The position numbers and the translations under genes were made by a program. A stretch of DNA of 64,000 nucleotides from NCBI RefSeq assembly GCF_016903815.1, contig NZ_CP069973.1, one strand, 5' to 3'. This document shows, piece by piece, positions 18,802 through 55,505 of this stretch; the first letter of the stretch is position 1, and each line of letters begins with the position of its first letter. Source of the DNA: Escherichia coli. GTDB lineage: Bacteria; Pseudomonadota; Gammaproteobacteria; Enterobacterales; Enterobacteriaceae. Below the pieces are notes generated by a model. It made no database searches. It was not told the DNA's origin and saw only the letters and a list, made by a program, of their open reading frames with translations.

Positions 18802-18877
18802 GCCCGGATAGCTCAGTCGGTAGAGCAGGGGATTGAAAATCCCCGTGTCCTTGGTTCGATTCCGAGTCCGGGCACCA
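18802..18877 (+). tRNA. pheV: tRNA-Phe (GAA anticodon)
   Basis: 76-nt cloverleaf gcccggatagctcagtcggtagagcaggggattgaaaatccccgtgtccttggttcgattccgagtccgggcacca; position after yqgA. Confidence 0.95.
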
Positions 18878-19074: not shown

Positions 19075-20337
19075 ATGGCACTGACTGACGCAAAAATCCG
19101 GGCTGCAAAGCCCACTGACAAGGCTTATAAACTTACTGACGGGGCCGGCATGTTCCTGCTGGTTCATCCTAATGGTTCCCGTTACTGGCGTCTCCGTTAT
19201 CGTATTCTGGGTAAGGAGAAGACTCTGGCACTTGGTGTGTATCCAGAAGTTTCTCTCTCCGAAGCTCGTACAAAACGGGATGAGGCCCGAAAACTGATTT
19301 CGGAGGGGGTTGACCCTTGCGAACAGAAAAGAGCTAAAAAAGTTGTCCCTGATTTACAGCTCTCTTTTGAACATATTGCACGACGCTGGCATGCCAGTAA
19401 TAAACAATGGGCACAATCACACAGCGATAAAGTACTCAAAAGCCTCGAGACACACGTTTTCCCCTTTATCGGCAACCGGGATATCACAACACTCAATACC
19501 CCGGACCTGCTTATCCCTGTTCGTGCTGCAGAAGCTAAACAAATTTATGAAATCGCCAGTCGTCTGCAGCAAAGAATATCTGCTGTAATGCGTTATGCCG
19601 TACAGTCTGGCATCATCAGATATAACCCGGCTCTGGATATGGCTGGTGCATTGACCACGGTAAAACGCCAGCATCGCCCTGCTCTGGATCTTTCACGCCT
19701 GCCTGAACTTCTGTCGCGTATTGACGGTTATAAAGGCCAGCCTGTCACCCGACTGGCAGTTATGCTGAATTTACTGGTTTTTATTCGTTCCAGTGAACTC
19801 AGATATGCCCGCTGGTCTGAAATTGATATTGACAATGCCATGTGGACTATTCCAGCCGAACGCGAACCTCTGCCGGGCGTAAAATACTCACACCGGGGCT
19901 CCAAGATGCGAACACCACATCTTGTGCCACTCAGCCAACAGGCTGTAGCCATACTGACAGAACTTCAGACATGGGCAGGTGAAAATGGTCTGATATTTAC
20001 GGGTGCACATGACCCGCGTAAACCAATCAGTGAAAATACTGTAAATAAAGCCCTCAGGGTGATGGGGTATGACACAACCCGGGAAGTCTGTGGCCATGGA
20101 TTCCGGGCGATGGCGTGCAGTGCATTGATTGAATCAGGTTTGTGGTCCCGCGATGCTGTGGAACGTCAGATGAGCCATCAGGAGCGTAATGGTGTACGTG
20201 CTGCGTATATCCATAAAGCAGAACATCTGGAAGAACGTCGACTGATGCTACAGTGGTGGGCAGATTTTCTGGATGCGAACAGAGAACAATGTATCAGCCC
20301 GTTTGAATATGCAAAGATTAACAATCCATTAAAATAG
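19075..20337 (+). CDS. P4-type tyrosine integrase
   Basis: 420-aa ORF, N-terminus MALTDAKIRAAKPTDKAYKLTDGAGMFLLVHPNGSRYWRLRYR typical of P4/CP4 integrases, adjacent to tRNA. Confidence 0.9.
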   Translation: MALTDAKIRAAKPTDKAYKLTDGAGMFLLVHPNGSRYWRLRYRILGKEKTLALGVYPEVSLSEARTKRDEARKLISEGVDPCEQKRAKKVVPDLQLSFEHIARRWHASNKQWAQSHSDKVLKSLETHVFPFIGNRDITTLNTPDLLIPVRAAEAKQIYEIASRLQQRISAVMRYAVQSGIIRYNPALDMAGALTTVKRQHRPALDLSRLPELLSRIDGYKGQPVTRLAVMLNLLVFIRSSELRYARWSEIDIDNAMWTIPAEREPLPGVKYSHRGSKMRTPHLVPLSQQAVAILTELQTWAGENGLIFTGAHDPRKPISENTVNKALRVMGYDTTREVCGHGFRAMACSALIESGLWSRDAVERQMSHQERNGVRAAYIHKAEHLEERRLMLQWWADFLDANREQCISPFEYAKINNPLK

Positions 20338-36214: not shown

Positions 36215-37105
36215 TCAGGCTGCCAGATCATCGTTTCCGATGGAAGCATAATAAGCTTTTTCTGCTTCTGCCGGAGGAGTATGGCCCAGCCTTCCCAGCA
36301 ATCGTCGATTGTTATACCAGTCCACCCACGTTAGTGTGGCCAGTTCCACTTCTGCACGGTTTTTCCAGCTCTTACGGTGTATTACCTCCGCTTTGTAAAG
36401 ACCATTGATGCTCTCAGCCATCGCGTTGTCATACGAGTCGCCTGTACTCCCTGTTGATGCCAGTAATCCGGCTTCTTTTAGTCGCTCCGTATAGGCCAGT
36501 GACACATACTGAGAGCCTTTATCGCTGTGATGGATGGTGCCAGACGGACGACGGGCCCACAACGCCTGCTCCAGCGCATCCAGCACGAATGTCGTTTCCA
36601 TAGACGATGAGACCCGCCACCCCACGATGTATCCGGCAAACACATCAATGATAAACGCCACATAGACGAAGCCCTGCCATGTGCTGACGTAAGTAAAATC
36701 AGCCACCCACAGCTGGTCAGGTCGTTCTGCCACGAACTGACGGTTTACGCGGTCGCCTGCGGCAACGGCTTTCCGGCTGATGGTCGTACGGACCTTTTTA
36801 CCCCGGAGAACACCGGCAAGTCCCATAACCGCCATGAGACGTGCCACTGTACATCTGGCCACCCTGATTCCTTCCCGTAACAACTGACGCCAGACTTTAC
36901 GCACACCGTACACCTGATGATTTTCATCGTATACGCGCTGTATCTCTCTCTTCAGCCAGTCGTCGTGCTGCGCACGGGCACTGCGTTTATCCGGATGATG
37001 TCGCTGTTGCTGACAATGGTAATACGTTGACGGGGCAATATGCAGTTCGCTGCATACCGGTCCGACCCCGTACTGCTCACGCAGCTTATCCAGCAGTGGC
37101 ATCAT
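36215..37105 (-). CDS. insF: IS3 transposase OrfB (DDE integrase domain)
   Basis: 296-aa translation recognised as IS3 InsF. Confidence 0.85.
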
Positions 37106-37428
37106 TTTTTCCAGAGGCGGTCGAACTCCGCCTTCGCAAAATAAGCGGAAGCCTGGCGAAGGATATCGTTACTGCGGCGCAGTTCACGATTTTCACGTTC
37201 CAGCTCTTTCAGACGCTGACGTTCAGCGCTGGTGAGCCCACCATCACCGCCCCCGGTATCCCGCTCATGCTGGCGAACCCAGACACGCAGAGTCTCCGGC
37301 GTACAGCCAATCTTTGGAGCAATGGAACAAATTGCCGCCCACTGTGAGTCATATTCATCCTGACTTTCCAGAACCATACGAATCGCCCGCTGACGGACTT
37401 CGGGGGAAAAACGAGTATTTTTAGTCAT
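37102..37428 (-). CDS. insE: IS3 transposase OrfA (HTH)
   Basis: 108-aa translation [20 protein letters not shown]... recognised as IS3 InsE. Confidence 0.85.
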
Positions 37429-37453: not shown

Positions 37454-40400
37454 TTAGTCTCCAGGATTTCCGGGGCGGTTCAGCTGTTCATTAAAACGTT
37501 GTCCAGGCTGATCATAAAGTGCGCGTAATGTCTCCGCGGATGGCCGCGGTTGCATTTGCTGCATGCAGGGTTTCTGGTGGTAATCAAAATACTGTGGCAG
37601 ATGCTGGATCTCTGCTTTGTTTTCAATTACCCGTTGAAGGGCTCTTTGACGCAACTCTCTTGATGATTTGTCACGGATCGATTCCAATTGTAGCTGGCTG
37701 CCGCTACTAATTCGCTTACGAGCAGCATCAAAATCAAAGCGAATAGCCAATAGACTCGGCGTAGTCTCACTTAGCTGCAATTCCCCTAATTGCACTGATT
37801 CACGCTTATCTTTAATATAAACAATGATCTTATCATCAAGTTCAAAGCTGAGGTCAGCACCGGATTCCGTAGTATATGGGTAGAGTAAGCAACCACTCGG
37901 TGATTCCTGAAAGTCAGTAGAGTCGATGTTGACTATATCTCGTAGGTCTACTTCTGTATCAGATAATGCCTGCCATAACTCAATTGGGCTTGACTCACTA
38001 CTATCGAAGTCATCTTCATCCATCTCTTGATTAGGATTAGCTCGCTCAATGATGGCATCAATTACTGGCTCGAGGTTAAACAGTAGTTCAATAAAAGTAT
38101 TACGCTGATTAAGTGAGCCACGTTGTAATGAAAGTTGAGTATTAATTTTAGCCTGGGAATATTTACCAGCCTTTATACTTTCTTCGATCGATAATCCTTT
38201 TTCATACACTATTCTATTAATAGTGCGATTATCAGGATCTAAGTCTATCAATAGCCGCTCTCCTAGGCCAGTGATGTAACAACGCAATTCATGCGCAAAG
38301 CGTGGGTTAGATGACCAGTTACATTGAAAATAATAGATCCCATCATTTTGTTCTAGAAGCTTCACTTCTTGCGGCCAATCATCTGTGCCCCAGCAAACAG
38401 GAATTACCTTATCCTGTGACTCAGACGCCACAACTTGATTAATCTCAGCTTGTTCCGGTGCTCGAATTGACTGCAGCAAAGGATCGAGCGCGATAGGTAT
38501 ACCGTCAACGGTTTGTTTTGCGCGTTCTAGCTCAGCCTGCACCAGTACTGGCATATCTTCACTAAATAGCTCCTCCACCATACGATATACTGCAAAGCAA
38601 TCTCGCCCAAAAGCATCAGTACTTTCGGGATTCTCTGGCTGGTAGCGATTATCTGCAGTTAATTCATCACTGAATTCAAGCAATCCAATCAGAGTAATTA
38701 CTGTCTGCTCCCCGACTTGTACCAGCAGTTTCTCTGGGCAAAGATCTCCATGAGGTAACTGCTTTTCATGAAAAGCATGAATGGTGTTGATCAACTTTTC
38801 CGCAATTGTAAAACGTTGGGATTGTACTAACACGTTCTCAGCAATAAACTGTGACCACGGTAGGCCATCCACATACTCGCTCACTACATACAAGCCGCCT
38901 TGTCCTAATAGTCCATAGGACTGCACCTTAGGAGTTGGCAGATTTATATGCGTAAGCTTATCGATCCGTTGCTTAAAAGCGTGGATACGGCGGTTAACAC
39001 CAGGTTGTTGAGGGGTCAAAATAACACCATCCCACAATTTTACCTGCAGAGCTTTCCCACCTTGTTCACAGTGATAACTGATGCTGCCAGTCGTAGCAAT
39101 AGCAGCAAGAGCAGAGTAAACCATAGACAACTGTTCAGGAAGTGGAGGAAACTCAATTAACACACCAACGCTGTTCATCCCTTCGCGAAAGAATTTGTTT
39201 TGCTTTAATTCTTGATAAATCTGGTTAGCTTCATCAAATTCTTGGCTATGTTCCTTAGTAGCTGCATTAAACTCATTGAGCATTATGTCCGCACGTGGAA
39301 AGCGTTTACTTGGCTCAAGGTTAAGAGCTTGCTCAAACCAGCTATTTAGAATACCGCTAAAAGGATCAGTTAATGGAGCTCTCCATTCAGGCATCTGTCC
39401 AGGAGTCAGTAATGATTCACCTGCAAAACAAATACGATAAGCAATTACAGCCAACATGAATACATCTAGGCGATAGGGCTCAACTGCTTCTTCAAAAGCA
39501 TCTTCGGGCAAAATATATGGAGCACTTTGCAATGTCGGACGCAATGACTCTAGGCTATTATGTCCCTCCAGTGAGGCTGCGCCAAAGCCAGTAACGACAA
39601 TGCTCTTCTGATCCCCTGCGTACCATAGATTGTGCGGGTCAATATCACAATGACTGATACCCAAGCTATGTAATTCCGAGAATGGAGCTAATAATGCACG
39701 AACGCGATCAATACGCTCAGATTTACTCCATCCGTCAGCTTCGCTATCTAGAATCTCATCTAATCGGCTAAAACTACGGCGTAACTCATACAGCTCACGG
39801 GCATCATCAGTTATATCCTCCTCGGATAGTTCCCTTACAGCACGCAACATATAATCCTGCATAGTTGCGCTGCCATGACGAACTAGGCGACCGACTCGAG
39901 TCTCACGCAGAGCTATCTCAGCCCACAATGTTTGCATTGCGTTTGCTACACCCAAGGCATCAAAGTTCCACTGCCGTAGCAGACCTCTGTGTTGACTATT
40001 GTCTTTGTGGGTAGCCCTGAATTCGTTGTAGACCATGTGAGGGTGACTAAAGAATGGCTTATCGTTCGCAAGATAACCGCTTTCTTTTAGTGGCAAAGGC
40101 CTGACTTTTGGTCCTTCAAAGAAGGACTTAATTATAGGTAATGCCTCATCAGAATTTGGTCGAGGCTTTCCCCCTTCAAAAAGATGAAAAAAGTTAGTGT
40201 GTTGCACCAGCTTTTCGTAATTTTTTGGGTTACCTATAGTCAAGAATTCATCACGGGTATGAACATAGCGCCTCTCACTTAATGGCAAGTTTTCAGGACC
40301 AGCTGTGCCACACAGCACTACATGAGCCTCAACATGCAAAAAGTAACCCAGCTTACGAGATAACTCTTCCTGCAACAAATCTTTTAGTCGCAGTGCATGC

Positions 40401-40678
40401 TCACGCTTGATCTGATAGGGACTTTTGCCTCGTGACTTACCATTTTGCAGCCACTTCCCCCCTTCAAATGTGATGTTACCATTCCACTCTTTAAGCTCGA
40501 CTAATAGCAGACGGTCAGCAGTAATAATTAGCATATCGATTTCCATCGACCCTTGGCTATCAGTAACAACTAAGCCAGCATAGCCAAACCAACTATCTGG
40601 TAACTGCTTAACCATCATATCAACTGTTTTGGTTTCGCTGCGGTGCAGGCCAGCACCACCTACTATCTGATACTTCAC
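37454..40678 (-). CDS. 1074-aa protein with N-terminal NERD-like nuclease domain and two protein-kinase-like regions; 3' end runs into IS3
   Basis: NERD-like motif [21 protein letters not shown]; kinase catalytic-loop-like motifs [10 protein letters not shown] and [10 protein letters not shown]; last about 9 codons and stop lie inside the IS3 inverted repeat. Confidence 0.7.
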
Positions 40679-42594: not shown

Positions 42595-43480
42595 ATGAAT
42601 ATCCGTATCTGGAGTGGTATACTCCCCTGTATGGATATCTCCGCTCTCAACACCACGAATGACATCGAAAAACTGCGTGCTATGGCACTTACCATGGTAC
42701 AAAAAGTCATGTCGGAGAATGCCGAAAAAGAGCGGGAATTACTGGAGAAAAGCCGGCGCATCCAGCTTCTGGAAGAAATGCTGAAACTGGTTCGTCAACA
42801 GCGCTTCGGTAAAAAATGTGAAACGCTGGCTGGTATGCAACGCTCCCTGTTCGAAGAGGATGTTGATGTCGATATCGCCGCGCTTACCGCACATCTGGAT
42901 AAACTGCTCCCGCAATCCCCTGAAGAAGACGAAAAAGCGTCCCGTTCACGCCCGATACGCAAACCCTTACCGGCTCATCTTCCACGGGTGGAAAAAATTA
43001 TCCAGCCGGACACTGACCATTGCCCTGAATGTGACGAGCCGCTGCACTATATCCGTGATGCGGTGAGTGAAAAGCTGGAGTATATTCCCGTTCACTTCGT
43101 GGTGAACCGTTATGTCCGTCCGCAATACAGTTGTTCCTGTTGCCAGAAGGTGTTCAGCGGTGAAATGCCGGCACATATCCTCCCGAAAAGTGCCGTTGAG
43201 CCATCAGTCATCGCACAGGTGATCATCAATAAATACGGTGACCACCTGCCTCTGTATCGCCAGCAACAGGTCTTTGCCCGTTCAGTGTCGGGCTGCCCGT
43301 CAGTTCGATGGCTGACATGGTTGGCGCGGCGGGTGCCGCATTATCTCCCCTGGCGGCGTTACTCCATCGCGAGTTGATAAACCGTCCGGTGGTGCATGCA
43401 GATGAGACTACCCTGAAGATCCTGAACACTAAGAAAGGCGGTAAATCCTGCTCCGGTTATCTGTGGGCAACCAGCCTTCC
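42595..43480 (+). pseudogene. IS66-family transposase (TnpC), frameshifted and 3'-truncated
   Basis: Zn-ribbon CPECDEPL ... CSCCQKV, then HADETTLKILN in another frame; homology ends near 43480. Confidence 0.65.
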
Positions 43481-44274
43481 GCCTCGTCCGGATCCGCTGT
43501 TTCCAGTGTCATCAGGAGCCGGCTGCATGCTTCCCCTGCCGTTTTACCCAGCGTGGCCCGCTGCGAAAGACGGATGCGGTTTCCGGCACCCAGCCCACTG
43601 CGGTTATCGATATGGACCTTAACCGGATCGGGTTCGGTGATAAGTGCGCGGGTATCCGGTGCCAGCAGACTCACCAGAGCCCGGATGCCTTCAGCATTGC
43701 GGGTGGGTAATCGCATGGCACCCAGTAAGGCCAGGAAACGGGAAACCGGCGTTGCCACCTGTTCAGCGGTGCCGGGTATACCGAGTCCGACCAGTCCCAG
43801 CAGACACTGCGATGTGGCATCGCGCCCCCCCTCCTCGAAAGTGGCCGGATACGCATATTTTCGCCAGATCCGGTAGTACTGGGTGGTGATGCGGTGGCTG
43901 AAAATATCCAGAAATGAGGTGAGCGCCTCATGTCCTTCACGGCGCTGCGCAATATCATCCAGCCAGGACGTCGGCAGAGGTGAGTCCACCCCATACATTC
44001 CGAGAAATGTCGTGCGGATCGTTGGGGGTAATGTCGGACGGTCTTCGTCGATCTCCACCGCTTTCAGGGTGCTGACCGGGAATCCCATCCCGGGCCAGGG
44101 CCTGAATCGCACCGGGTCATCGCCCGGATGGCTGGTCGTGCCCAGTTTTGGCCCGTCCGGATTTTCCAGCTCCAGCAGCTGGCAGAAACGATAAAAACTG
44201 GCCCGCCAGATATCGTTGTTAAGGGCCAGGGCCTGCGTCAGCCCGGTACGTGCTGGCTGTGATTCTCTTTTCAT
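43429..44274 (-). CDS. tssG: type VI secretion baseplate protein TssG, C-terminally truncated
   Basis: N-terminal FYRFCQLLELE...DPVRFRPWPGMGFPVS pattern of TssG; abuts IS66 remnant. Confidence 0.6.
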   Translation of the reverse strand: MKRESQPARTGLTQALALNNDIWRASFYRFCQLLELENPDGPKLGTTSHPGDDPVRFRPWPGMGFPVSTLKAVEIDEDRPTLPPTIRTTFLGMYGVDSPLPTSWLDDIAQRREGHEALTSFLDIFSHRITTQYYRIWRKYAYPATFEEGGRDATSQCLLGLVGLGIPGTAEQVATPVSRFLALLGAMRLPTRNAEGIRALVSLLAPDTRALITEPDPVKVHIDNRSGLGAGNRIRLSQRATLGKTAGEACSRLLMTLETADPDEAEGWLPTDNRSRIYRLS

Positions 44275-45929
44275 CTCAGTCGTTTCCCTGTGGGTTGCAG
44301 TACCAGTGTGAGCTGGTTGAAAAGGTGAACATCAGCATAGAGCGCAAAGAAACGGTGCAGCATCTCCCCGAAGAGATTCACATCGCCCTCGCCGGCAAAA
44401 TTATCCATATTCAGCGTGACCTCAATGTCCACGCCACGGAGCATAAAGCCCTTTTCAAAACGGCGGATCAGGGTGTGCTTCACAGCAACGATGGCTTCAA
44501 GCCGGCGGCGGTTCATTTCATCGTCGGTCCAGTCATAGAGCGCCAGCGTCCCCCGCAGCACCTCCGGATTGTCCATCATGCTGAGAAAGTTTGATCCGAG
44601 GTGACTCATCACCCGCCAGTGAAACCGGTCATTTGCCGGGGGATACAGTGGCATCGTCGGTGCGGTCAGGTTCAGGACTCTGACGGGGACTTTGCCGGTT
44701 TTGACCACCCTGTCCAGGAGCGTACTTTCCAGCGCCCTGCGCGGAAGCTGCCCGTTGGTCGCGGTGATTCGCATCGAGAGGGACTCCGGTTTATCGGACA
44801 ACTGCTCCAGCTCGAACGAACGCCCCCCGAGAACTAACCATGTGTCATACAGGCCGGAGGGTCCCCGTTTCACACGGGTGTGGTAATAACGTTCAGGAGC
44901 ATCGTGGCGCATCATACCGCCCCGGTGCCGGAAGCTGGTGAACGGGACATAAGGGTGTCTGCCGTTCTTCACCGAGCCGTGAATGTTATCGACGCTGTAA
45001 ATTTCGGTGTGACCATCCTGAAGACGCAGCGGCCTGAGCAGGTACTCGTTATCCAGCGGGTTAAGGATCAGCGGGTCGGCTTCCAGGGTAAAGAGATTGA
45101 TAACCGGCGCACAGTGCAGGCGGAAGTTTTCTGTCTCAAAAGGCAAACCGGATGACCAGGCTTCACTGAGCACAATGTCGATTTCAAACCAGGTACTGGC
45201 CGCAGTGAGCCCAATGGTGTCGAGGCCGCGCAGTTCAACAAACATAAACTTCGGACGGAAGCTGAAATACTCCAGCAGCAACTGGTAACCACTGAAGGCT
45301 GTATCAGCTTTCTTCCACAGGCAGTCATTGTCGTCAAAGCCCATGGGTCTGCACCAGCCGTCAAACTGACGACGTCCGGTATATGTCCCGGCATGACGCG
45401 CATACATGGCATGTACACGCCGGGTCATTGCCAGATGTAGCGCAGCACTTACCGGCGCCTCTGCGTTAAGAAAAATGGCGACTTTGTCGATCCCGGCTTT
45501 ACTCCAGTCCACTTTTTCAGGGCATTCGAAGCGCAGACGGATAGCAGAGCGGCCATCGGATTCAGTATGGAGACGGGCATCTGCAAGGTGCAGCGGTTGT
45601 AGCAACACATCGCGGGTCGCCCGGTACTGGCAGGCGGTTTTATGCGGCCCGACAGGACGGGACAGAACGGAAAAGCCTTCAGCCAGTATTTCGGCCTGAC
45701 GCAGACTACGCCAGTCAGGCGAGAACTCAACGATGGCCAGCGACGGGATAGTCCGCATATAGTGCGGCCACAGCAGACTCACCAGACCTTCGGTGAGCTC
45801 CGGCAGGTCATCATCCAGCTTTTCACGCAAACGTCCCATCAGGAAGGCAAAGCCTTCAAACAGACGTTCCACACTGGGATCGCAGGCACCAGGCTTATCC
45901 AGATTCAGCATTGCTGACGTAATCCACAT
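44271..45929 (-). CDS. tssF: type VI secretion baseplate protein TssF (N-terminus possibly frameshifted)
   Basis: VERLFEGFAFLMGRLREKLDDDLPELTEGLVSLLWPHYMRTIPSLAIVEF pattern of TssF; upstream 73-aa ORF is in a different frame. Confidence 0.6.
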   Translation of the reverse strand: MWITSAMLNLDKPGACDPSVERLFEGFAFLMGRLREKLDDDLPELTEGLVSLLWPHYMRTIPSLAIVEFSPDWRSLRQAEILAEGFSVLSRPVGPHKTACQYRATRDVLLQPLHLADARLHTESDGRSAIRLRFECPEKVDWSKAGIDKVAIFLNAEAPVSAALHLAMTRRVHAMYARHAGTYTGRRQFDGWCRPMGFDDNDCLWKKADTAFSGYQLLLEYFSFRPKFMFVELRGLDTIGLTAASTWFEIDIVLSEAWSSGLPFETENFRLHCAPVINLFTLEADPLILNPLDNEYLLRPLRLQDGHTEIYSVDNIHGSVKNGRHPYVPFTSFRHRGGMMRHDAPERYYHTRVKRGPSGLYDTWLVLGGRSFELEQLSDKPESLSMRITATNGQLPRRALESTLLDRVVKTGKVPVRVLNLTAPTMPLYPPANDRFHWRVMSHLGSNFLSMMDNPEVLRGTLALYDWTDDEMNRRRLEAIVAVKHTLIRRFEKGFMLRGVDIEVTLNMDNFAGEGDVNLFGEMLHRFFALYADVHLFNQLTLVLQPTGKRLR

Positions 45930-47238: not shown

Positions 47239-47841
47239 TCAGAGCTGGCCTGCTACGGGATACCAGGGATTACCGGCGAGGTAACGGGCTTCCGGATCGC
47301 GCACACCACGACGATCGCGGGCGAAATCACTGAACGCCCATATCAGCTCTTTGAGTCTCTCTTCGCAGTCCGGTGAACAACTGTCCAGCACCACATCCCG
47401 GGTGATCTGCTTCTGGTACGGTGCTGCTTCACCCGGTGATGCGAAGCCCAGTACGTTGCTCCAGGCATCCAGAATCAGCCGATCCAGTTCAGGGCCGTCG
47501 AAATACTCCTGTCTGACGCACAGCACCACGTGGTATTCCGGTTTTTCAGGATGACGTGTCAGGAGCCAGCAGAGGTCACGTCCGGGTGTTGCATTCATCA
47601 GCGCACTGACGGTTTCGATAAAGGCCATACCGAACCAGGTTTTTCTGTCGCTGAAGATGTTGCCATGTTCCCCCGGCAGACGAAGCAGGATCCGCCGTAT
47701 TCGGGAGCAGGACTGCTCGCGCAACACACGGTTGAGAACGCCGATGATTTTGTTCTGATAAGATGGCCAGAAGGGGGCCAGGCTATAGTCGAAATAAGGG
47801 ATAGCATTCATAAGATATGCTCCGTTATGCGCAGCCCACAA
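47239..47841 (-). CDS. inovirus Gp2-like (YagK/YfjJ family) protein
   Basis: Shares YHVVL..R motif pattern with the paralogs at 48069 and 51308. Confidence 0.55.
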   Translation of the reverse strand: MWAAHNGAYLMNAIPYFDYSLAPFWPSYQNKIIGVLNRVLREQSCSRIRRILLRLPGEHGNIFSDRKTWFGMAFIETVSALMNATPGRDLCWLLTRHPEKPEYHVVLCVRQEYFDGPELDRLILDAWSNVLGFASPGEAAPYQKQITRDVVLDSCSPDCEERLKELIWAFSDFARDRRGVRDPEARYLAGNPWYPVAGQL

Positions 47842-48068
47842 TGCGTCCTGCCCGTGAATAAGCTGACGTGTTATGGTTTGCGGATGGGGTTGATGGAATA
47901 AGTGAAGAACCGGGGCAGAACGGGAAGATCAGGTCACCGACAAGGGACAGAACACCGGATGTGGTTCAGAGTGAATGATCTCCGTTGACTTCAGTTCACA
48001 TCATTAAGCAAGGCGGTAAGGTTTTACCGACGGAATGTTTCCAGGACAGGAAGCTCAGGATTTAAGCT

Positions 48069-48635
48069 TCAGAAGTGAGGCTTACGAGGACGCCCTGCAG
48101 CAGGTCGTTCAGGAACTTCACTGCAACCGTATGCGCACAGTCCGTCTTTTTGCTCTTCTTTCGCCAGATAATGCAGGACACCGCGAATATTATCGATGCT
48201 CCCGGGATCGTTATGACGCACGGGAATGTTGATGTTGTATGTATAATGCGGCTGATATGTACAGCGGTGTGCCGAACCGCTGTTATGCGTAATAGACTGC
48301 CAGCATTCCGTAATCCGCTCCGCAAAGGGATATATTTTTTTAACCCTCTGACGATCGAGCCAGAAAACCGCATGCGCATGAAAACCATGATCAGCCGTCC
48401 ATTCAATCACCCAGAAGAAACCAACGATATTTTCAAATTGTTCCACCTGCTCCAGCAGCATACGCAACTGCAATTCAAGCCAGCGATGATCAGGTTGTAA
48501 GAAATCAGGCGTATCTTTCCTGTAGAAGAAATCCATGCGTAAGGCCCGCAGGCGGGAATAGCGTGCGACCAACTGATTGATGTGATTGTCAAGTAAAGCG
48601 GTAAAAAACCAGTTTGGTGTGTAAGATTTAGGCAT
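48069..48635 (-). CDS. inovirus Gp2-like (YagK/YfjJ family) protein
   Basis: LRALRMDFFYRKD ... FHAHAVFWLDRQ motifs. Confidence 0.65.
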   Translation of the reverse strand: MPKSYTPNWFFTALLDNHINQLVARYSRLRALRMDFFYRKDTPDFLQPDHRWLELQLRMLLEQVEQFENIVGFFWVIEWTADHGFHAHAVFWLDRQRVKKIYPFAERITECWQSITHNSGSAHRCTYQPHYTYNINIPVRHNDPGSIDNIRGVLHYLAKEEQKDGLCAYGCSEVPERPAAGRPRKPHF

Positions 48636-50179
48636 GCTGATGACTCCTGAAAGTTAATGACGTTTTAAGTGCTGTAAACGAATTAATGCTTTCGCTCATA
48701 ATCAGATCTAAAACGGTAATAACTTACAGACGGTATTTATCAGGCATGCTGTAACAGAATGGATACGTCGGTTATTAACGACACACAGCGTTGTGCTGAA
48801 GGGTATGAGTTATCTGATGGCATTGTCTATAGAGATGAGATAAACGAGGTGCGAAGAAAATACAGATTCAATACAACACAGTGAAATACAGAAAAATACG
48901 AACTGTAATCCCGCTGCCAGGCGGTTAGGAAACATATTACAACTATAAGCTCATGGTTTGTAAATTTGCTCTCAGTGAGTCTGAAAAAACGTTTATAAGG
49001 TCACCACAATAAACTCACACGCGCTTATTCAATCTGTTCTCCAGGATATGAACGTTAACGACACACGATAGCATAAGACAACATACAATGGATGAATAAT
49101 TTTCACCCAGTACCTTAAACAATACAACCGGCAACAAATATAATCAGAAATTCACTCTGTTAATTCTGTTGTTTATCCTGCGCTGTTAAACATGACGGAA
49201 CCATGGATACCTTATCAAAGAGTAAGCATTCAGTTAATCAGTAATGACAGAGAAATTGATGTTCACCAGAATAGTTAAAACACTTCAGATAAACAATCAT
49301 TGTTAAGCAAATACGGTTCATAATGGATAAATTAGAATCAATTACTGTTTTACTGAAGATGAGAATAGATGAATATCAACAATAGCGTAGTAGAGAATAA
49401 CTTACCTGAACATCATATGAGTTACAGTAGTTATGATTGAGGGATGGAGTGAATACGATAACAAGAGTAATACTAATGGAATGTGTAAAGATTGAGAGTG
49501 AGTGAAGACAGGAAGTAAATAACAATAGAGATTGTATGAAAAAGGGAGTGAATAAAGAATATATAAAGAATAAATATAATTATAGTAATAAACCTAAATT
49601 AAAATCATCCTTGTTTGATGAGTAAAAATAATTCTAGAAAATGAATCTGTCTGAAAACTCTTTCTCAGAGATTAACCGATCAGATGCTCAACGGACTCAA
49701 TAAATTGGCTGAGTCAGGTTACCTCATCCACACTCTATTTGTTTCTAGAAGGATCTACCATTTTGTTCATCTACCGGAACACATCAATTTAGTAACTCGA
49801 TAATATCGGTTATGTAGATATTTATCGTTGCTACCAATGCCTAGATTATTATTCTCCAAGTATTTTCTTGACTTACAGGCTAATTTTGAAACAAATGTCA
49901 TGCTATTTTAGGAAAAGAACCTATGCAAAAGTCTGCTATGAGCGAGGAGCAGATATTCATCTGGTATACAAAGACAATATCGCTTAAGTCATCAGTGCTG
50001 CCACTTTAACCACTAGCTCTGCTCTTTTTGGACTTTTGAGCTAAAAATTAAATCTGACAGTGTGATAAGGTGCAAGTTTCTGAAAATACGCCAGTTGTTT
50101 TACACTCAAAAGCCCCCATTACTATCTGATGTTAATGGCGCAGCAGTTATCTTTCAGATTATTAAGGGGAAACAAGAGT

Positions 50180-50884
50180 ATGGCAAGATGTACAGCTCCT
50201 GTACGTGGACATAGCTCAGCAGCAGCTGCTGCTGCCTGTCCCGCATGTCGTAATCGCAGTGGTTATCGCCGCAGTAGCTACAGTTATGATAGTTACCCTT
50301 CTTACTCATCAGGCTCTAGCGGTGGCGGAAGTTATGGAGGCAGTAGCGGTGGTTCCAGCAGCAGCGCGAAGCCACGTTGGTCAAAATCAGGGTCTTCCGT
50401 TTCTTACACAACAGCCCAAGTACAATCACTCACACCAATTCGACAAGCGGTAGAGAAACTTGCCATTGAGCAACCTGATCTGCGTGATGTCTTTCTTTGC
50501 CATGCTTGGGATGACCGACAAGGTATTGCCAAAGAGTTACACGATTTGCTCGAAGCGGCAGGTGTCAAAGTATGGTTCAGCGAAAAGGATCTTGCCCTTG
50601 GTGTTCCGATGATGCGTGCCATTGATAAAGGATTAGCAAACTCTCGAATCGGCTTGGTTTTAGTGACACCTGCATTGTTAAACCGTCTTCCTAAAGAAGG
50701 CGTTGCTGATAAAGAACTTTCCGCCTTACTGGCAGGCAACCAACTCGTTCCCATCGTGCATAACACGACGTATGAAGCTCTCCGTAATGTCAGTCCTTTG
50801 CTTGCATCCCGAAGCGGCCTCGACACGGGAGAAGATACATTGGCAGTTGTTGCAACAAAAATTGCAGAGCTGATCACTGTTTAG
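50180..50884 (+). CDS. TIR-domain protein with Ser/Gly/Tyr-rich low-complexity N-terminus
   Basis: RBS aagggga then ATG; TIR-like motifs DVFLCHAWDD, VWFSEKDLALG, SRIGLVLVTPALL. Confidence 0.7.
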   Translation: MARCTAPVRGHSSAAAAAACPACRNRSGYRRSSYSYDSYPSYSSGSSGGGSYGGSSGGSSSSAKPRWSKSGSSVSYTTAQVQSLTPIRQAVEKLAIEQPDLRDVFLCHAWDDRQGIAKELHDLLEAAGVKVWFSEKDLALGVPMMRAIDKGLANSRIGLVLVTPALLNRLPKEGVADKELSALLAGNQLVPIVHNTTYEALRNVSPLLASRSGLDTGEDTLAVVATKIAELITV

Positions 50885-51307
50885 TTTATCCAAGCCACCG
50901 TTAAATATTTCCAGCTCATGAATCTGGTCTGCTATTGCAGGCCAGATATCAGTCAATACTGAAAGGTTTGACCTGCTCCCCGTTGATTAACATAGACTGA
51001 TATAGCAACTTCCGCTTTTGGCACAAAGCAGACCATGAGAAGATAGACGCTATAACATTTGAGTCCTACCAATCGATCTGTTCATTTCCATAAATGGCAG
51101 TAAATGCAAATAACCAGAACAGCCAGGCGCTTTTCGACTTATGGTCGATGTTGCAAAGAGTGAGGAGTGGAAAGCAAGCGTGCGAACGAAAGTAGATGGC
51201 AATCCATTGCATTACTTCAGGACGACTTTTCAGAAAGCGAGCTAAGGGCGTCAGCCAACGCCCTTACCGTGGCATAAGCTCAGGCACCGGATGCCGTTTT
51301 ACAGGGC

Positions 51308-52039
51308 TCACCTGCCATCCAGTAAACGCCCCGGCCCACGACTGCAACCATAATTACGTTGACCAGAACCGTCATGCTGCTTCGTCTCATACTTCACGAG
51401 ATAACAGGCTCTCTCCATGGCTTTCTGCATCGCTTCCACATCACCACGCTTGACCCAGAGCACAGCGGATCCACCAGATTTTTTGTCAGAAGCTTTCCGG
51501 GTATCAGAACATCCACCCGACAAAGGCGTATCATCGGAAGAAGGGCGAGCATCAGATGATGCCGGTTTACGGAAAGGCGTCCGCCTGGAAAAATGAACCA
51601 GTCCATTACCCTGCCAGGGTTCAAGATGCAGAGCGCTACACCATGCCAGCTTGATCAGCGTCGCCAGCGAAGAAGGAACGGTGAAATCCCCTAGCGAGCA
51701 CCAGGTATCTTTGTTGAGCAGTAATATCACGTGATAATGTTTCCTGCCTTTTTCCTTGCCAAACTCCCGACACCAGAAATAACGCAGAGTGGTTGCACGC
51801 ACACGCTTGTTGGCACGTCGTTTATGTCGCTGGTAAGCCTGAATTTTTGCTTTCAGGGATTCGAAAAAACGAGAAATCACCGCTGAATCCGAATCGGGAT
51901 CCATGATGGTGACAGGCATATACTCAGGGAAACGTAAATCCATCCGGATTAACGAGACGACACGGTGTTGCGCCAGGGCACTGTTGAGAATACTTTCAAA
52001 ACGGGATAACCAGTAAGCATTGTGTATTGGTTGATTCAT
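51308..52039 (-). CDS. inovirus Gp2-like (YagK/YfjJ family) protein
   Basis: VSLIRMDLRFPEY ... HYHVILLLNKD motifs. Confidence 0.65.
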   Translation of the reverse strand: MNQPIHNAYWLSRFESILNSALAQHRVVSLIRMDLRFPEYMPVTIMDPDSDSAVISRFFESLKAKIQAYQRHKRRANKRVRATTLRYFWCREFGKEKGRKHYHVILLLNKDTWCSLGDFTVPSSLATLIKLAWCSALHLEPWQGNGLVHFSRRTPFRKPASSDARPSSDDTPLSGGCSDTRKASDKKSGGSAVLWVKRGDVEAMQKAMERACYLVKYETKQHDGSGQRNYGCSRGPGRLLDGR

Positions 52040-52883
52040 GATGAGAGATCTCCGTTGATTTGGATTGACTTCACATCATTAATCACCGCGGTAAAACTTT
52101 ACGGCATCCCGCCATTGAGCAACGCCAATGGCTCCTGATTAAAACAGAATGAATCCCCCACGAAGAAAAAATAAACCTACACGCAGAGTAAAACACACAA
52201 CAACGGCATAAATGGTTTTTAAAAACTACAAAGCCTGAAGGGAAACGGATCCACAGAACGTGCAAACAAAACACCAAAAACGCAATCAGAACGCTTTCTG
52301 CTGCTGTGAATCAACAACAATACCAAAACCTACAGCTTAACCACAAAACTCAATCACAGAGCCGAATAGCGTGTTTAAAACCTGTTTACAGATAACCCTG
52401 CCACAAGAACAAAGTTCACCAATATCAGAATCGATTTTCTCATCCTGAAAATGTTACGTTTCACTACACAGCATAAAAACGATTAACTATTGATAACGTA
52501 AACCTCATCTGAATCAAAACACCAGAACCAATCATCACGCTTTTCCTGAAAAGAGCCTTGCGCTGAGAAAAAACACCAGGGTCAGTTAATCATCTCATCA
52601 ATCTCATCGTTACAAAAACATCCATAAAACCATTTAACAAAATCATCGTAAGCACACAGTAAATCACGCCAGGTTATCTCAGCCAAATTTTCGTTTTACA
52701 TAAAGACACTTGTCTCAGGTTAACGACTAAAAACACAAAAACTCAGAAAAGGTTAAACGTAACTTCAGAAAAATAGAATATCATATTGATTGCTTAAACA
52801 GGAAAGATTGTTTTGTAGTAGCATTAAGCTGATTTTAGTTAACGTAAAAACAGGACTGACAGGTTTACTAAACTGGATGTGTA

Positions 52884-53100
52884 TCAGACAAAGCAATGTG
52901 TATAACAATACTTAATGAAAACACTTGTAGAATTGTTTATGAAAATACGTGTATGTCTGGTAAAACACTTAGTAGAAAATACGTGTATAACACTTACTGA
53001 AATGCTTAGTAAAAATACTTAGTAAAATATGTGTAGAATTATCTATTTAAAAAGATATGTATATAACACTTAATAAAAACATGTGTATATAGTATCATAC
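52884..53100. repeat. iteron-like array of degenerate direct repeats in AT-rich intergenic DNA
   Basis: Recurring GTGTATAACA(A/C)T..A.TGAAAA and TGTAGAATT.T.TAT..AAAA units, 2-3 copies each. Confidence 0.4.
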
Positions 53101-53730
53101 CGACATTCTCAACATCTTCAGACTTCCATACATACTGGGTGTTGATTTCTCACTTTTACAGCCAGCATGGAGTTTTCTGTCCTAAAAACAGAGCAGATTT
53201 ACTCTGGAATTATTTTTCTACCCCCGTATTTCAGGCCCCAGAAAAGACAATCCGAAGCAAACCGTTTGTCAGCCTCCATATCATCTTTTACCCCCGGAAA
53301 GTGATCGCGTTTACAACCAGAATGACAGCCATACTGATTATGTCGTCTCCCGGCCCCCTTCACATATAACATGCATGTCTGTCATTGCTTACTGCTCCAC
53401 ATGACCGGATTTCACATACAGGATGCACATTCAGTGTTTTTATCGCTACTATAACAGACAGATTACTGTCGTCTTTACTCTTCAGATTGTTAATCTGACC
53501 ACAAGAACAGCCGAACGGCAAAACGCCCTCCACAAGGGGCACATGAACCATAGTTGATAGCATGTTTTTCCTAATCAAGGAATAGTTCAGGAATATTTTA
53601 TTGCATTAATAACTGGCGAATAATCGTTCTGTGAACACAAAATGCTTTTATTTGTAAATTTTATTGCATTGCACTCGTTTTATTGATATGGGGTTTAATA
53701 ACAGATAACCCGGAAAGAAGGAGAAAACAG

Positions 53731-54522
53731 ATGACATTACGGATTAACGATCAGGGGCGAGATAAACAGAATCAATTTTTATCGAAAAATGGAGAAAATC
53801 TGAATTCGTTAAAATCGCGTCATGTGCAGGATAGGCATTTACCTGAATGGCTTAAGGATAAAGTTGCAGCATTCTGGTTTTGTCTGGTGATAAAGGATAT
53901 GAAAGTGTCAGGGAGCAGTTACTATGAACTTACCATGCAACTTCCCACTTCTGAAGAATCTGTTTGCATCAGTAAGCTGTCATCCTCAACCCATGAGATT
54001 CGGCTGGAGATCATCAGGCGATGGATTGATAGTGTAGCGCAGATAGAAACGGAAGCTTTTACTAAAAATCTCGTTGATGCCATCTATAAAAACTGGAAGG
54101 AAATCGGGAACAAAAACCAGGCCACATGGCTTAAAAAAAATCCGGAACAACTCGAGTGGGCATGGAAATATATTAACATTCGTATTCCCGAGTCACATTT
54201 AACCTGGTTTTGCCCCGTCAATAACGAAGAGAAACGCATTGCCATCTTAGCATTGCTTAAAATACTGTATCCCGGAGATATACCATGCCAGTACAACGAC
54301 AAAGAGTTTCATGTCGGGATCTGCGCTGAAGAACATTTTTACAGAAGAATGCACGACGCTTTCAGAAAACAGTTTATCGACGGGAAAAAAGATAAACGGG
54401 TACAAATTAACGTAAAGATATCACCGTCCGCAAAAAGCGCTCTGGACAGACTGACCAGAGCGAGGAAAACAACACAGCAGGCTATTCTGGAACAACTGAT
54501 TCTGAACGGTAGACTGGATTAA
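53731..54522 (+). CDS. hypothetical protein with C-terminal RHH/HTH-like tail
   Basis: RBS aaggag then ATG; tail ...SAKSALDRLTRARKTTQQAILEQLIL; contains an A8 homopolymer at 54133-54140. Confidence 0.5.
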   Translation: MTLRINDQGRDKQNQFLSKNGENLNSLKSRHVQDRHLPEWLKDKVAAFWFCLVIKDMKVSGSSYYELTMQLPTSEESVCISKLSSSTHEIRLEIIRRWIDSVAQIETEAFTKNLVDAIYKNWKEIGNKNQATWLKKNPEQLEWAWKYINIRIPESHLTWFCPVNNEEKRIAILALLKILYPGDIPCQYNDKEFHVGICAEEHFYRRMHDAFRKQFIDGKKDKRVQINVKISPSAKSALDRLTRARKTTQQAILEQLILNGRLD

Positions 54523-55505
54523 CTTTCACTACTTCCACTCCTGGCAGTTTTCCTCTTTTTGTAGTGTCTCCCGGCTGCAGGCATCAGGTACTTTTCCGTC
54601 ATTTCGTTGCAGAACTCTTCAATGTAGTTAATCAGCTTCTGGTGTGCTTTCACCTTTTCTTCCCCGGGGGACGCTTTCAGATAAATGTCCTCCTTTTCCA
54701 CAAGTGTATTTATAAACTCTCCCGGACATCCCTGGTTATAAAGCAACGTGAAAAACAACACATTCCCCAGTCTCTCCAGTAACTGCGATTTAACCCTGTA
54801 TTGTTGTTTGCTGAGGATTGATTGTTTTATAAAGCTTAGTCTTGTTAAAAGTTGTTCAAATCCCGGTTCCAGTTTAAAAACAGATTTTAATACCAGGGAC
54901 TGATACTCCTGATAAAAAAGTTCAAACGTCGGGGATGCAGACTGACGAACAGATTTGGCTACAACCCATGGACTAAATCCCATGATTGGGATTTCCTTCG
55001 CTCCCTCCAGCGCACTCAGAGGTAGTCCAGCAATCCATGCGTCCAGCTTAGCCGAATCAATATCCCCGCTCAAAACCTCATACAAACTGCCCGTGAACGG
55101 TTGAGTCGGTTTTTTTGTTGTTTTACCTTCTGATTGCCTGAATCCATCCACTTTTCTCCGGATATTACGCGGAATCAGCATAAAAGGCGGGACATTAAGT
55201 GATAAACGTTTACCCGTCATACGATACCAGTGGCCCACCTCAACCTTAATCCGTGTATCTGGCCTTGTATCTGGCCTTGTATCTGGCCTTAGCTCAAGTG
55301 CTATTATGTTAAGCAGGTACAGATAACGCACCGTATAACAGTCAAAATGTTTCTCCGGATCAAACGGCTCTGATCGTTCTCTGCACACAAGTCCGCTGCG
55401 CTTCAGTATTCGCTGGGTATCTTTCCAGGCCTTACTCTGAAGAATGGTGGTAACTCTGGCTTTATTAGCAATCTCACGCAGCGCATCACTTTGTTGTGCC
55501 GTCAT
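54519..55505 (-). CDS. hypothetical protein containing (RPDT)x3 tandem repeat
   Basis: ORF with RBS ggaggg before MTAQQSD; convergent with, and 4-nt overlapping, the previous gene. Confidence 0.5.
   Translation of the reverse strand: MTAQQSDALREIANKARVTTILQSKAWKDTQRILKRSGLVCRERSEPFDPEKHFDCYTVRYLYLLNIIALELRPDTRPDTRPDTRIKVEVGHWYRMTGKRLSLNVPPFMLIPRNIRRKVDGFRQSEGKTTKKPTQPFTGSLYEVLSGDIDSAKLDAWIAGLPLSALEGAKEIPIMGFSPWVVAKSVRQSASPTFELFYQEYQSLVLKSVFKLEPGFEQLLTRLSFIKQSILSKQQYRVKSQLLERLGNVLFFTLLYNQGCPGEFINTLVEKEDIYLKASPGEEKVKAHQKLINYIEEFCNEMTEKYLMPAAGRHYKKRKTARSGSSES
55253..55292. repeat. 12-bp in-frame tandem repeat (tggccttgtatc, about 3 units)
   Basis: Seen directly; encodes RPDTRPDTRPDT on the minus strand. 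Confidence 0.6.

Follow-up and report, generated by a model that had tools for sequence, protein, structure and literature searches.

What, if anything, is encoded or controlled by 1.5 kb of gene-free DNA in an Escherichia coli genomic island? The window analysed here, a stretch of 64 kb, contains an E. coli island with a tRNA-Phe gene (18802-18877), IS fragments and a CP4-type gene set. Within it, the tract at 48636-50179 had been described in an earlier note as ORF-free, strongly AT- and purine-rich and located upstream of a TIR gene. The lack of ORFs was borne out, as 48636-50128 contained zero ORFs of ≥60 aa and the longest ORF internal to the tract was 49 aa. The resulting gap of 1493 nt was the largest without an ORF of ≥60 aa in the window, followed by gaps of 1100 and 861 nt. 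An equal lack of ORFs ≥60 aa was seen in 25% of dinucleotide shuffles; the absence of ORFs is expected for non-coding DNA of such composition, and it is the 1.5 kb without a gene that is unusual. AT-richness was also confirmed, the GC content being 34.8% for the tract versus ~48% for the window, with only 0.08% of same-size windows lower in GC than the tract. Purine richness held locally, at 49446-49577 (74% purine, 3.8% C), but not overall (54.7% purine), so that the description of strong purine richness with long A/G runs was only partly confirmed, the longest pure purine run (11 nt) being set against a shuffle mean of 11.2. The string quoted as the purine-rich example was located at 49440-49474. 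A C-free stretch of 69 nt in the tract equalled the maximum among 500 shuffles, the plus strand of the tract was A-rich, and repeats within the tract were short and two-copy only. The tract does lie upstream of the TIR gene, and it lies equally upstream of a divergent yagK/yfjJ-like gene (Table 1).

We consider the tract to be a composite non-coding region between two divergent units of the tRNA-Phe island, mostly drifting spacer with two short constrained pieces, and assign this reading a probability of about 0.55. The left two-thirds (48636 to ~49635; to ~49960 in this sub-lineage) would be a backbone spacer upstream of the yagK/yfjJ-type HUH gene. The likely ancestral arrangement is a gene-free spacer of ~1.5 kb separating a yfjI-family gene from yagK. 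Here, as in many strains, cargo would have replaced yfjI, in this case an orphan ThsB-like TIR cassette whose upstream region makes up the last 125 nt of the tract. Most of the spacer appears to have no sequence-level function, drifting faster than synonymous sites, and its composition makes coating by H-NS-type nucleoid proteins probable, as for other acquired DNA that is rich in AT. Approximately 130-210 nt beside yagK would represent the promoter and leader, whose position we infer, and a predicted hairpin in this leader would occlude the ribosome-binding site and start codon of yagK and so probably act as a gate on HUH-gene translation. Finally, a 29-nt core ~0.95 kb upstream of yagK is a candidate cis-element of the module. 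The tract itself would matter little: AT-rich DNA between the genes of an acquired island is the kind that nucleoid proteins are expected to silence. The ~1 kb of never-annotated backbone in the tract marks the edge of a slot with strain-variable cargo.

Table 1. Coordinates of the tract's components and of its two flanking genes in the 64-kb window.
Feature	Coordinates	Strand	Basis
YagK/YfjJ ("inovirus Gp2-type") 188-aa protein	48069..48635	-	ORF, RefSeq product; HUH-like motif HAHAV
Predicted extended hairpin in yagK 5' leader, pairing SD AGGAG and AUG	48632..48749	-	Folding
Constrained proximal block, putative promoter/leader region of yagK	48636..48848		Low divergence
Unconstrained AT-rich spacer, GC ~36%	48849..49445		Divergence, indels
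Hypervariable GA-rich tract, poor in C, whose tandem repeats differ between strains	49446..49576		The purine-rich example of the earlier note
AT-rich invariant core TAAT(T/A)ATAGTAATAA(A/G)CCTAAATTAAAA	49577..49605		Semi-conserved extension to ~49635
Sub-lineage-specific non-coding segment	49636..49960		85-97% shared with islands of other cargo
Junction between backbone-type sequence and TIR cassette	49961..50054		Outside both the other-cargo homology and the Klebsiella plasmid TIR homology
Upstream region travelling with TIR gene, presumed promoter and SD (TAAGGGGAAA)	50055..50179	+	Klebsiella homology
TIR protein, 234 aa	50180..50884	+	PADLOC PDLC00424 (ThsB model), E 2.7e-128, residues 1-233; Pfam TIR_2

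The backbone spacer (48636 to ~49635) was found at 1917 places in ~1570 of 5426 complete E. coli genomes (~29%). Carriers included UTI89, where the tract spans ~4,860,022-4,861,131 of NZ_CP062228.1, and strain 222, the latter with a tract that is 100% identical and unannotated in RefSeq. No CDS, pseudogene or other feature was present in the RefSeq annotation beneath the 1917 E. coli copies. Every backbone copy adjoined a 188-aa yagK-like gene, which opens a module of conserved order (yagK, then a 200-aa hypothetical, then an AlpA-like HTH), and the cargo beyond the far side varied. In the yfjI arrangement, a gap of 1540 nt lies between the yfjI-family gene and yagK, both in one transcriptional direction. 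Across strains, the cargo beyond the slot edge included a ThsB-like TIR gene, a restriction enzyme, D-serine and pseudouridine utilisation genes and H-NS paralogues. One preprint places inovirus-Gp2-like genes, together with alpA and radC, among the core genes of a defence-carrying island class; a literature search on this tract itself returned nothing. Homologous tracts outside E. coli were found neither in plasmid and phage collections, nor in IMG/VR, nor in the upstream DNA of HUH homologues from other genera. Plasmid copies of the core-containing fragment were rejected as informative homologues, these being an IS-truncated island remnant.

The 188-aa YagK protein matched Pfam YagK_YfjJ_C above threshold (27.9 bits) and REP_ORF2-G2P just below the cut-off (24.7 bits), and some of its homologues are named "rolling circle replication-associated protein" at source. 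The gene is under purifying selection, because codon positions 1+2 differed by 2.1% versus 9.9% at 4-fold sites across 105 pairs.

The right part of the tract is a mosaic. The segment at 49636-49960 occurred in 213 genomes, where it was never annotated (query overlaps 1-325, 77-325 and 1-76), and its homologues lay in islands with other cargo, namely a 450-aa hypothetical, a restriction endonuclease and other hypotheticals. Further to the right, the Klebsiella pneumoniae plasmid pWP2-W18-ESBL-06_1 was homologous to 50055-50949 of the window at 83%, and its copy of the TIR gene is likewise solitary. No ThsA partner adjoins the TIR gene in the window, and the two neighbouring ORFs examined (53731-54522 and 54519-55505) had no PADLOC or Pfam match. 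A lost ThsA as the origin of the upstream tract was rejected, with no SIR2, SLOG or Macro remnant present. The mosaic make-up of the tract, the widespread island backbone and the two short constrained elements had been missed in the earlier note.

The pattern of divergence separates the spacer from the constrained pieces. In comparison to the 4-fold sites of yagK, the middle of the tract (48790-49440) was more divergent, with a pairwise difference of 14.3% that exceeded the 4-fold value in 83/105 pairs. In contrast, pairwise difference was 3.8% at 48636-48765, versus 9.9% at 4-fold sites, and 3.6% in the core. Near-invariant runs were restricted to 48643-48848 and 49582-49604. Indels and deletion variants persist in the spacer, including one that lacks 330 nt and retains only the last ~130 nt of the proximal side. 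The length of the core-to-yagK spacer was nonetheless roughly constant, mostly 875-1035 nt. Drift does not fully explain a spacer of ~1 kb with neutral sequence and near-constant length, and a role dependent on length or composition is conceivable. Conserved small ORFs were rejected as an explanation, the 41-aa plus-strand and 49-aa minus-strand ORFs being broken or frame-shifted in other copies.

Adjoining the core, the GA-rich tract was hypervariable, with column identities of 0-0.55 and repeats such as GATAGAGT (~10 times in LH50c) and GGAGAAGGT (three times in M217). It was also essentially unstructured (MFE -0.8 to -4.8). These GA repeats are products of slippage in low-complexity sequence and do not represent conserved iterons. 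A CsrA/Rsm-type sponge RNA was rejected for this tract, as the number of GGA motifs at 49440-49577 equalled the expectation from composition (5 observed vs 4.5 ± 1.7 expected) and the LH50c repeat unit GATAGAGT contains no GGA.

The near-constant length bears on a further explanation, namely that the tract is kept as an H-NS nucleation and silencing platform, with its AT-richness and length under selection and the yagK operon and cargo (thsB) silent for as long as H-NS stays bound. In both E. coli and Salmonella, horizontally acquired DNA of high AT content is coated by H-NS. The GC content of the tract is the lowest in the window, its TpA steps reach 94/kb versus 49/kb for the window, its length is roughly kept despite sequence drift, and H-NS-family genes adjoin the same tract in several islands. 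It resembles H-NS-silenced islands in being AT-rich relative to the host, TpA-rich and located in a tRNA-linked island between divergent units; it differs from them in lacking curvature, phased A-tracts and enrichment of the high-affinity motif. The earlier note had proposed H-NS silencing and named curvature as a check, and here AA/TT power at 9.5-11.5 bp fell below the shuffle mean, with no 10-11 bp phasing. Matches to the 10-mer TCGATAAATT with ≤2 mismatches numbered 4 versus 3.6 ± 1.9 expected, copies with the 330-nt deletion persist, and related HUH genes do without a long AT-rich upstream tract. An H-NS role would have to rest on composition, because most of the tract sequence is unconstrained. 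Binding of H-NS to the tract is plausible, being compatible with its composition and island context; that the tract is maintained for this purpose is possible but doubtful.

Within the composite region that we favour, the core is the last element common to all module copies. A 75-nt query holding it (49566-49640) matched 1449 E. coli genomes, and the exact core was present in 86 metagenome loci. In all 58 of the metagenome loci with enough flank (58/58), its distance to the yagK start was 620-1035 nt (median 946). Coding does not account for the core, because in the 29-aa ORF that ends in it (MKKGVNKEYIKNKYNYSNKPKLKSSLFDE) the N-terminal part is hypervariable and the changes in the tail are mostly non-synonymous. 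Beyond it, the flanks fell into at least 16 types that diverge 0-345 nt further on. A site-specific cargo junction at the core was rejected because the junctions scatter over this 0-345 nt range and several are IS insertions. The core is most likely a candidate protein-binding cis-element of the module. This makes it a clean and cheap target for finding its binder, which could reveal the role of widespread island HUH genes.

Given the neighbouring gene, which belongs to a rolling-circle Rep-like family, the core and the repeat tract beside it might instead form the cis site of the YagK/YfjJ HUH endonuclease (nick, origin or recombination) and define the border of a hotspot for cargo exchange. 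In favour of such a site, the core does not vary, occurs exclusively in this module and keeps a fixed distance, and the flank types part 0-345 nt past it. Furthermore, the second HUH gene of the window also has an ORF-free upstream tract, of ~1.1 kb, with iteron-like repeats of variable copy number at its far end (52890-53080). Against this, no hairpin was found at the core in the single-sequence folding scan, the core is single-copy in the window without a second copy or matching end, and the junctions scatter instead of falling at a single phosphodiester. The best alignment of the core with the conserved block of the second tract (18/29) was at chance level, with 70% of shuffles as good, and no sequence relatedness was found between the two ORF-free tracts of the window. 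HUH relatives at 39-60% identity have no long tract, and the GA repeats, as slippage products, do not count as conserved iterons. Indeed, neither conserved iterons nor a hairpin with a conserved nick sequence were found in the tract, its sole strong hairpin being the mRNA leader. We therefore regard such a cis site as unlikely. The stronger proposal, that the core and repeat tract are the recognition or nick site of YagK and that yagK, spacer and core constitute a previously unrecognised HUH-driven device, is quite improbable; if true, such a device could serve to copy the island after excision or to favour exchange of defence and metabolic cargo, in a module carried by ~29% of complete E. coli genomes.

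The intergenic region beside gene II of the Ff filamentous phages is a compact set of conserved hairpins. Like it, the tract is ORF-free and directly upstream of a G2P-type HUH gene, but it has no conserved structure except for the mRNA leader and no sequence similarity, and HUH relatives lack the tract. With iteron origins (P4 ori/crr, PICI ori) it shares an AT-rich, non-coding sequence and copy-variable repeats near replication-type genes, but its repeats are strain-specific GA units and, by eye, no DnaA box occurs in all copies. As with one-ended capture of the IS91/ISCR type, the sequence is fixed up to a boundary on the side of the HUH gene and highly variable past it; in contrast, the island tract has no ori/ter end pair, its junctions spread over 0-345 nt, and none of the libraries used identified YagK (188 aa) as an IS91-family transposase.

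A decayed gene was also raised in the earlier note, and erosion of one gene or two formerly situated between yfjI and yagK could leave such a tract. The tract is ~1.5 kb in length and lies between same-direction genes in the yfjI arrangement, its middle diverges in a neutral-like manner, its plus strand is A-rich, and in more distant modules the gene immediately upstream of the HUH gene encodes 197 aa. The 197-aa protein of these modules is unrelated to the tract, though, and a six-frame Pfam scan of the tract detected no remnant. Intact homologues were absent from 1.84 billion representatives searched with the plus frames, where the only matches were spurious 29-97-aa ORFs of the same locus, and from 5.8 billion clusters searched with the minus frames. 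Period-3 signal was also lacking in tract segments (z -0.8 to 0.2 versus 3.6 to 11.4 in the flanking genes), and PGAP called 0 pseudogenes in the 1917 copies. These data make an eroded gene distinctly unlikely.

That the tract encodes a regulatory RNA, whether long or small (such as an antisense or leader RNA for the HUH gene, or a purine-rich protein sponge), is very unlikely. In its favour, the tract is a long, unannotated stretch that its copies share by descent, some islands have a ProQ/FinO-family gene close to the module, a structured leader adjoins yagK and a plus-strand promoter-like site was scored at 49116-49144 (10/12). Against it, synonymous sites change more slowly than the middle of the tract, GGA motifs show no enrichment, RNAalifold on 20 diverged copies gave z-scores of -1.3 to +1.2 in all windows except the yagK leader, the single-sequence fold scan had a mean z of 0 with 0/74 windows below -2.5, and no intrinsic terminator with a convincing stem was found besides two weak minus-strand terminator-like sites. 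The covariance-model scan went against the non-coding RNA raised in the earlier note, with 0 Rfam matches at E≤1 in 47500-51500 and none in the tract at gathering score in the window-wide scan. Promoter-like sites in the tract numbered 3 versus 6.9 ± 2.6 in shuffles. The supplementary files of a UTI89 sRNA screen held no numbers beginning with 4860 or 4861, the position of the tract in UTI89, which is a weak negative.

The composite reading leaves one structured element, the yagK leader. Its predicted hairpin had an MFE of -33.2 kcal/mol and a z-score of -3.24 against 200 dinucleotide shuffles, and folding of the leader alignment gave a z-score of -3.2 on the minus strand only. The consensus structure paired AGGAG and AUG in 21/21 distinct leader variants. 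Leaders were 95% identical among copies, and of the 38 consensus pairs 0 showed compensatory changes and 2 showed GC<->GU variation, which would fit a minus-strand RNA. In M217-type copies, a 12-nt deletion takes out one arm of the upper stem. A consensus promoter scan found no canonical sigma-70 promoter for yagK or the TIR gene, and none was called on the plus strand for the latter. The hairpin offers a testable handle on the control of uncharacterised YagK/YfjJ HUH genes.

A candidate uORF of 23 codons (48699 to 48628) can be read from the leader sequence, with a stop that overlaps the yagK start (AUGCCUAA). Among copies it shows many non-synonymous changes, and in the L026/L107 variant it is cut short by a premature stop. 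In IncFII (tap/repA) and IncB/IncI (repY/repZ) plasmids, rep genes are under leader-peptide and stem-loop control. The leader here differs from these systems in that an antisense RNA gene or pseudoknot was not identified, the uORF is variable and in one variant prematurely stopped, and YagK is not a known plasmid replication initiator. It resembles them in that a predicted stem-loop encloses the SD and AUG of a Rep-like gene, and in that the uORF ends a few nt past the rep-like start, at AUGCCUAA.

The ORF-free DNA between yagK and the TIR gene (the tract, 48636-50179) is a real but largely ordinary feature. This non-coding, AT-rich spacer is mosaic in make-up and belongs to a widespread island backbone; within it lie a leader predicted to control translation of the HUH gene yagK and, bordering a cargo slot, one invariant 29-nt element (the core). 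The tract is bounded by the starts of the two flanking genes, and the position upstream of the TIR gene given in the earlier note was correct. The lack of ORFs of at least 60 aa claimed in that note was confirmed: the longest internal ORF was 49 aa, and the 1493 nt without such an ORF formed the longest stretch of this kind in the window. Such ORFs were also missing from 25% of dinucleotide shuffles; their absence is thus expected for non-coding DNA of this composition. AT-richness was likewise confirmed (GC 34.8% vs ~48% for the window), with lower GC in only 0.08% of same-size windows. The purine-rich character with long A/G runs held only locally, at 49446-49577 (74% purine, 3.8% C); one 69-nt C-free stretch equalled the maximum among 500 shuffles. 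Overall, the tract was 54.7% purine, and its longest purine run (11 nt) equalled the shuffle mean.

Features of the tract and its surroundings. Differences are mean pairwise values over 105 pairs from 15 loci.
Feature	Coordinates	Strand	Description
yagK	48069-48635	-	188-aa YagK/YfjJ ('inovirus Gp2-type') protein with HUH-like motif
yagK codon positions 1+2			difference 2.1%
yagK 4-fold degenerate sites			difference 9.9%
Proximal part of tract	48636-48765		difference 3.8%
Middle of tract	48790-49440		difference 14.3%
Core	49577-49605		difference 3.6%
Junction segment	49961-50054		unplaced; between 49636-49960 (shared with other-cargo islands) and 50055-50949 (shared with Klebsiella)
TIR gene	50180-50884	+	full-length PADLOC ThsB match, E 2.7e-128
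Second HUH gene	51308-52039	-	243-aa inovirus Gp2 family protein, Pfam E 1.1e-35

The mosaic make-up of the tract was apparent in its distribution. Its first ~800-1000 nt were present in about 1570 of 5426 complete E. coli genomes at 74-100% identity, and this backbone part occurred at 1917-1928 places, with no annotated feature over it in 1917 of them. In all 24 loci inspected it adjoined the module of yagK, a 200-aa hypothetical and an AlpA-like HTH gene on the same strand (yagK being truncated in one), and the DNA on the opposite side varied. Depending on the locus, that side carried dsdXA, pseudouridine genes together with a sugar kinase, genes of the H-NS family, a restriction endonuclease, hypotheticals or a YfjI-family gene. 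Where yfjI was present, it was co-oriented with yagK across ~1540 nt containing no annotated gene; we infer that this arrangement is ancestral and that cargo would have replaced yfjI in the other islands. Islands with other cargo also shared 49636-49960 (85-97% identity), and only 50055-50949, the TIR gene with 125 nt upstream, was common to Klebsiella plasmids, whose TIR protein was 95% identical in amino acids. Outside E. coli, searches of the plasmid and phage collections, of IMG/VR and of the DNA preceding HUH homologues in other genera did not recover the tract. Islands keeping yfjI also carried, in the yfjI-proximal gap, a conserved 33-aa ORF, MKTKPNHRCSVCAATVATIAIFSEKFSFTPNNW (L006 4344-4445 +; L010 4411-4512 +), antisense to yfjI and yagK and missing from the window. 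Several islands had a ProQ/FinO-family gene a few genes past the yagK module (L007 115-459; L008 1-433; L024 1-322), absent from the window's copy.

Divergence within the tract was uneven. For 83 of the 105 pairs, the middle was more divergent than the yagK 4-fold sites, and near-invariant runs of at least 10 nt were restricted to 48643-48848 and 49582-49604. Some natural copies (L024, L020 and four metagenome loci) had a 330-nt internal deletion (roughly 48765-49100) that spared ~130 nt on the proximal side as well as the distal part, leaving only 620-621 nt between core and yagK. By these sequence comparisons, most of the tract is conserved only through recent common descent, and constraint falls on two short elements.

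The distal element, the core, reads TAAT(T/A)ATAGTAATAA(A/G)CCTAAATTAAAA. A 75-nt query containing it (49566-49640) matched at least 1449 genomes, and the exact core was present in 86 metagenome contigs. In all 58 metagenome contigs with sufficient flank, its distance from yagK, on the upstream side, was 620-1035 nt (median 946); two seeming exceptions carried deletions within yagK. Its gene side adjoins a hypervariable GA tract with strain-dependent tandem units; on the other side, ~25 semi-conserved nt are followed by flanks of at least 16 types, which part 0-345 nt past the core and include IS insertions. No hairpin and no acceptable -35/-10 pair (scan, checked by eye) was found at the core, and no second copy in the 64-kb window. 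The simplest reading is a putative protein-binding site kept by selection, in which case viable rearrangements would end just past it.

The proximal element is read as a predicted translational-control leader of yagK. The last ~120 nt before its AUG were predicted to form an extended minus-strand hairpin (48749-48632; MFE -33.2 kcal/mol, z -3.24), and this was the sole window with a significant consensus fold among 20 diverged copies (z -3.2 minus, -0.8 plus strand). AGGAG and AUG were paired within the predicted hairpin in 21/21 distinct variants. No compensatory double changes occurred in its pairs among these variants; two pairs alternated GC/GU, which fits a minus-strand RNA. In M217-type copies, the upper stem loses one of its arms to a 12-nt deletion. 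The leader also holds a candidate 23-codon uORF, MSESINSFTALKTSLTFRSHQHA (48699 to 48628, minus strand), terminating at a UAA that overlaps the yagK start (AUGCCUAA); it showed many non-synonymous changes and, in the L026/L107 variant, a premature stop. Some plasmid rep genes are controlled by a leader peptide and stem-loop, a likeness that we offer as a lead only.

Composition and TpA density were compatible with the H-NS binding proposed in the earlier note, and the tract is probably coated by nucleoid proteins. No H-NS motif enrichment was found, and the curvature check returned no phased A-tracts. It is improbable that the core and adjoining repeats serve as the recognition or nick site of the YagK/YfjJ HUH endonuclease. 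The second HUH gene likewise has a long ORF-free AT-rich tract directly upstream (52040-53680, no RefSeq annotation), of which ~1.1 kb is conserved by descent in 27 loci; at its far end (52890-53080), ~23-nt iteron-like repeats (AAATACGTGTAT..AACACTTAGTA) of locus-dependent copy number are followed by a conserved GTGTATATAGTATCATACCGACATT. However, the two tracts had no sequence relationship, the core's likeness to the second tract's conserved block was at chance level, and only short upstream regions precede K-12 yfjJ, an E. coli paralogue with 60% identity and the homologues in other genera, all of which argues against a shared mechanism. The non-coding RNA proposed earlier found no backing: the covariance-model scan gave no Rfam match, no conserved structure existed beyond the yagK leader, GGA motifs were not enriched, and the middle drifts faster than yagK 4-fold sites (14.3% vs 9.9%). 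A decayed gene was likewise not supported: no protein-family remnant, period-3 signal or pseudogene call (1917 copies) was found, and two very large protein searches matched only spurious short ORFs from the same locus.

E. coli strain 222 and relatives matched the window at 100% identity, and the tract has no features annotated in RefSeq. The left end of the island is marked by tRNA-Phe (18802-18877) and a following 420-aa ORF (19075-20337), probably the integrase. Other contents include IS fragments, a Mokosh MkoA homologue, a YeeP-like GTPase and a CbtA/YeeU set. The MkoA match (ORF 37454-40678, PADLOC E 2.2e-188) belongs to a 1652-aa AAA-domain gene in RefSeq and lies beside an ALIL frameshift pseudoknot (IS3 family, 37031-37147). 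Truncated T6SS baseplate genes tssF and tssG with IS66 fragments (43429-45929 region; L001 6826-9278) indicate extensive decay left of the yagK module. An naRNA4 (CssrE) match was located at 6906-6976, in the core-genome part of the window. No ThsA was found near the TIR gene; the same solitary ThsB (Thoeris)-type TIR cassette also occurs, at 95% amino-acid identity, on numerous plasmids of Klebsiella, Citrobacter and Enterobacter.
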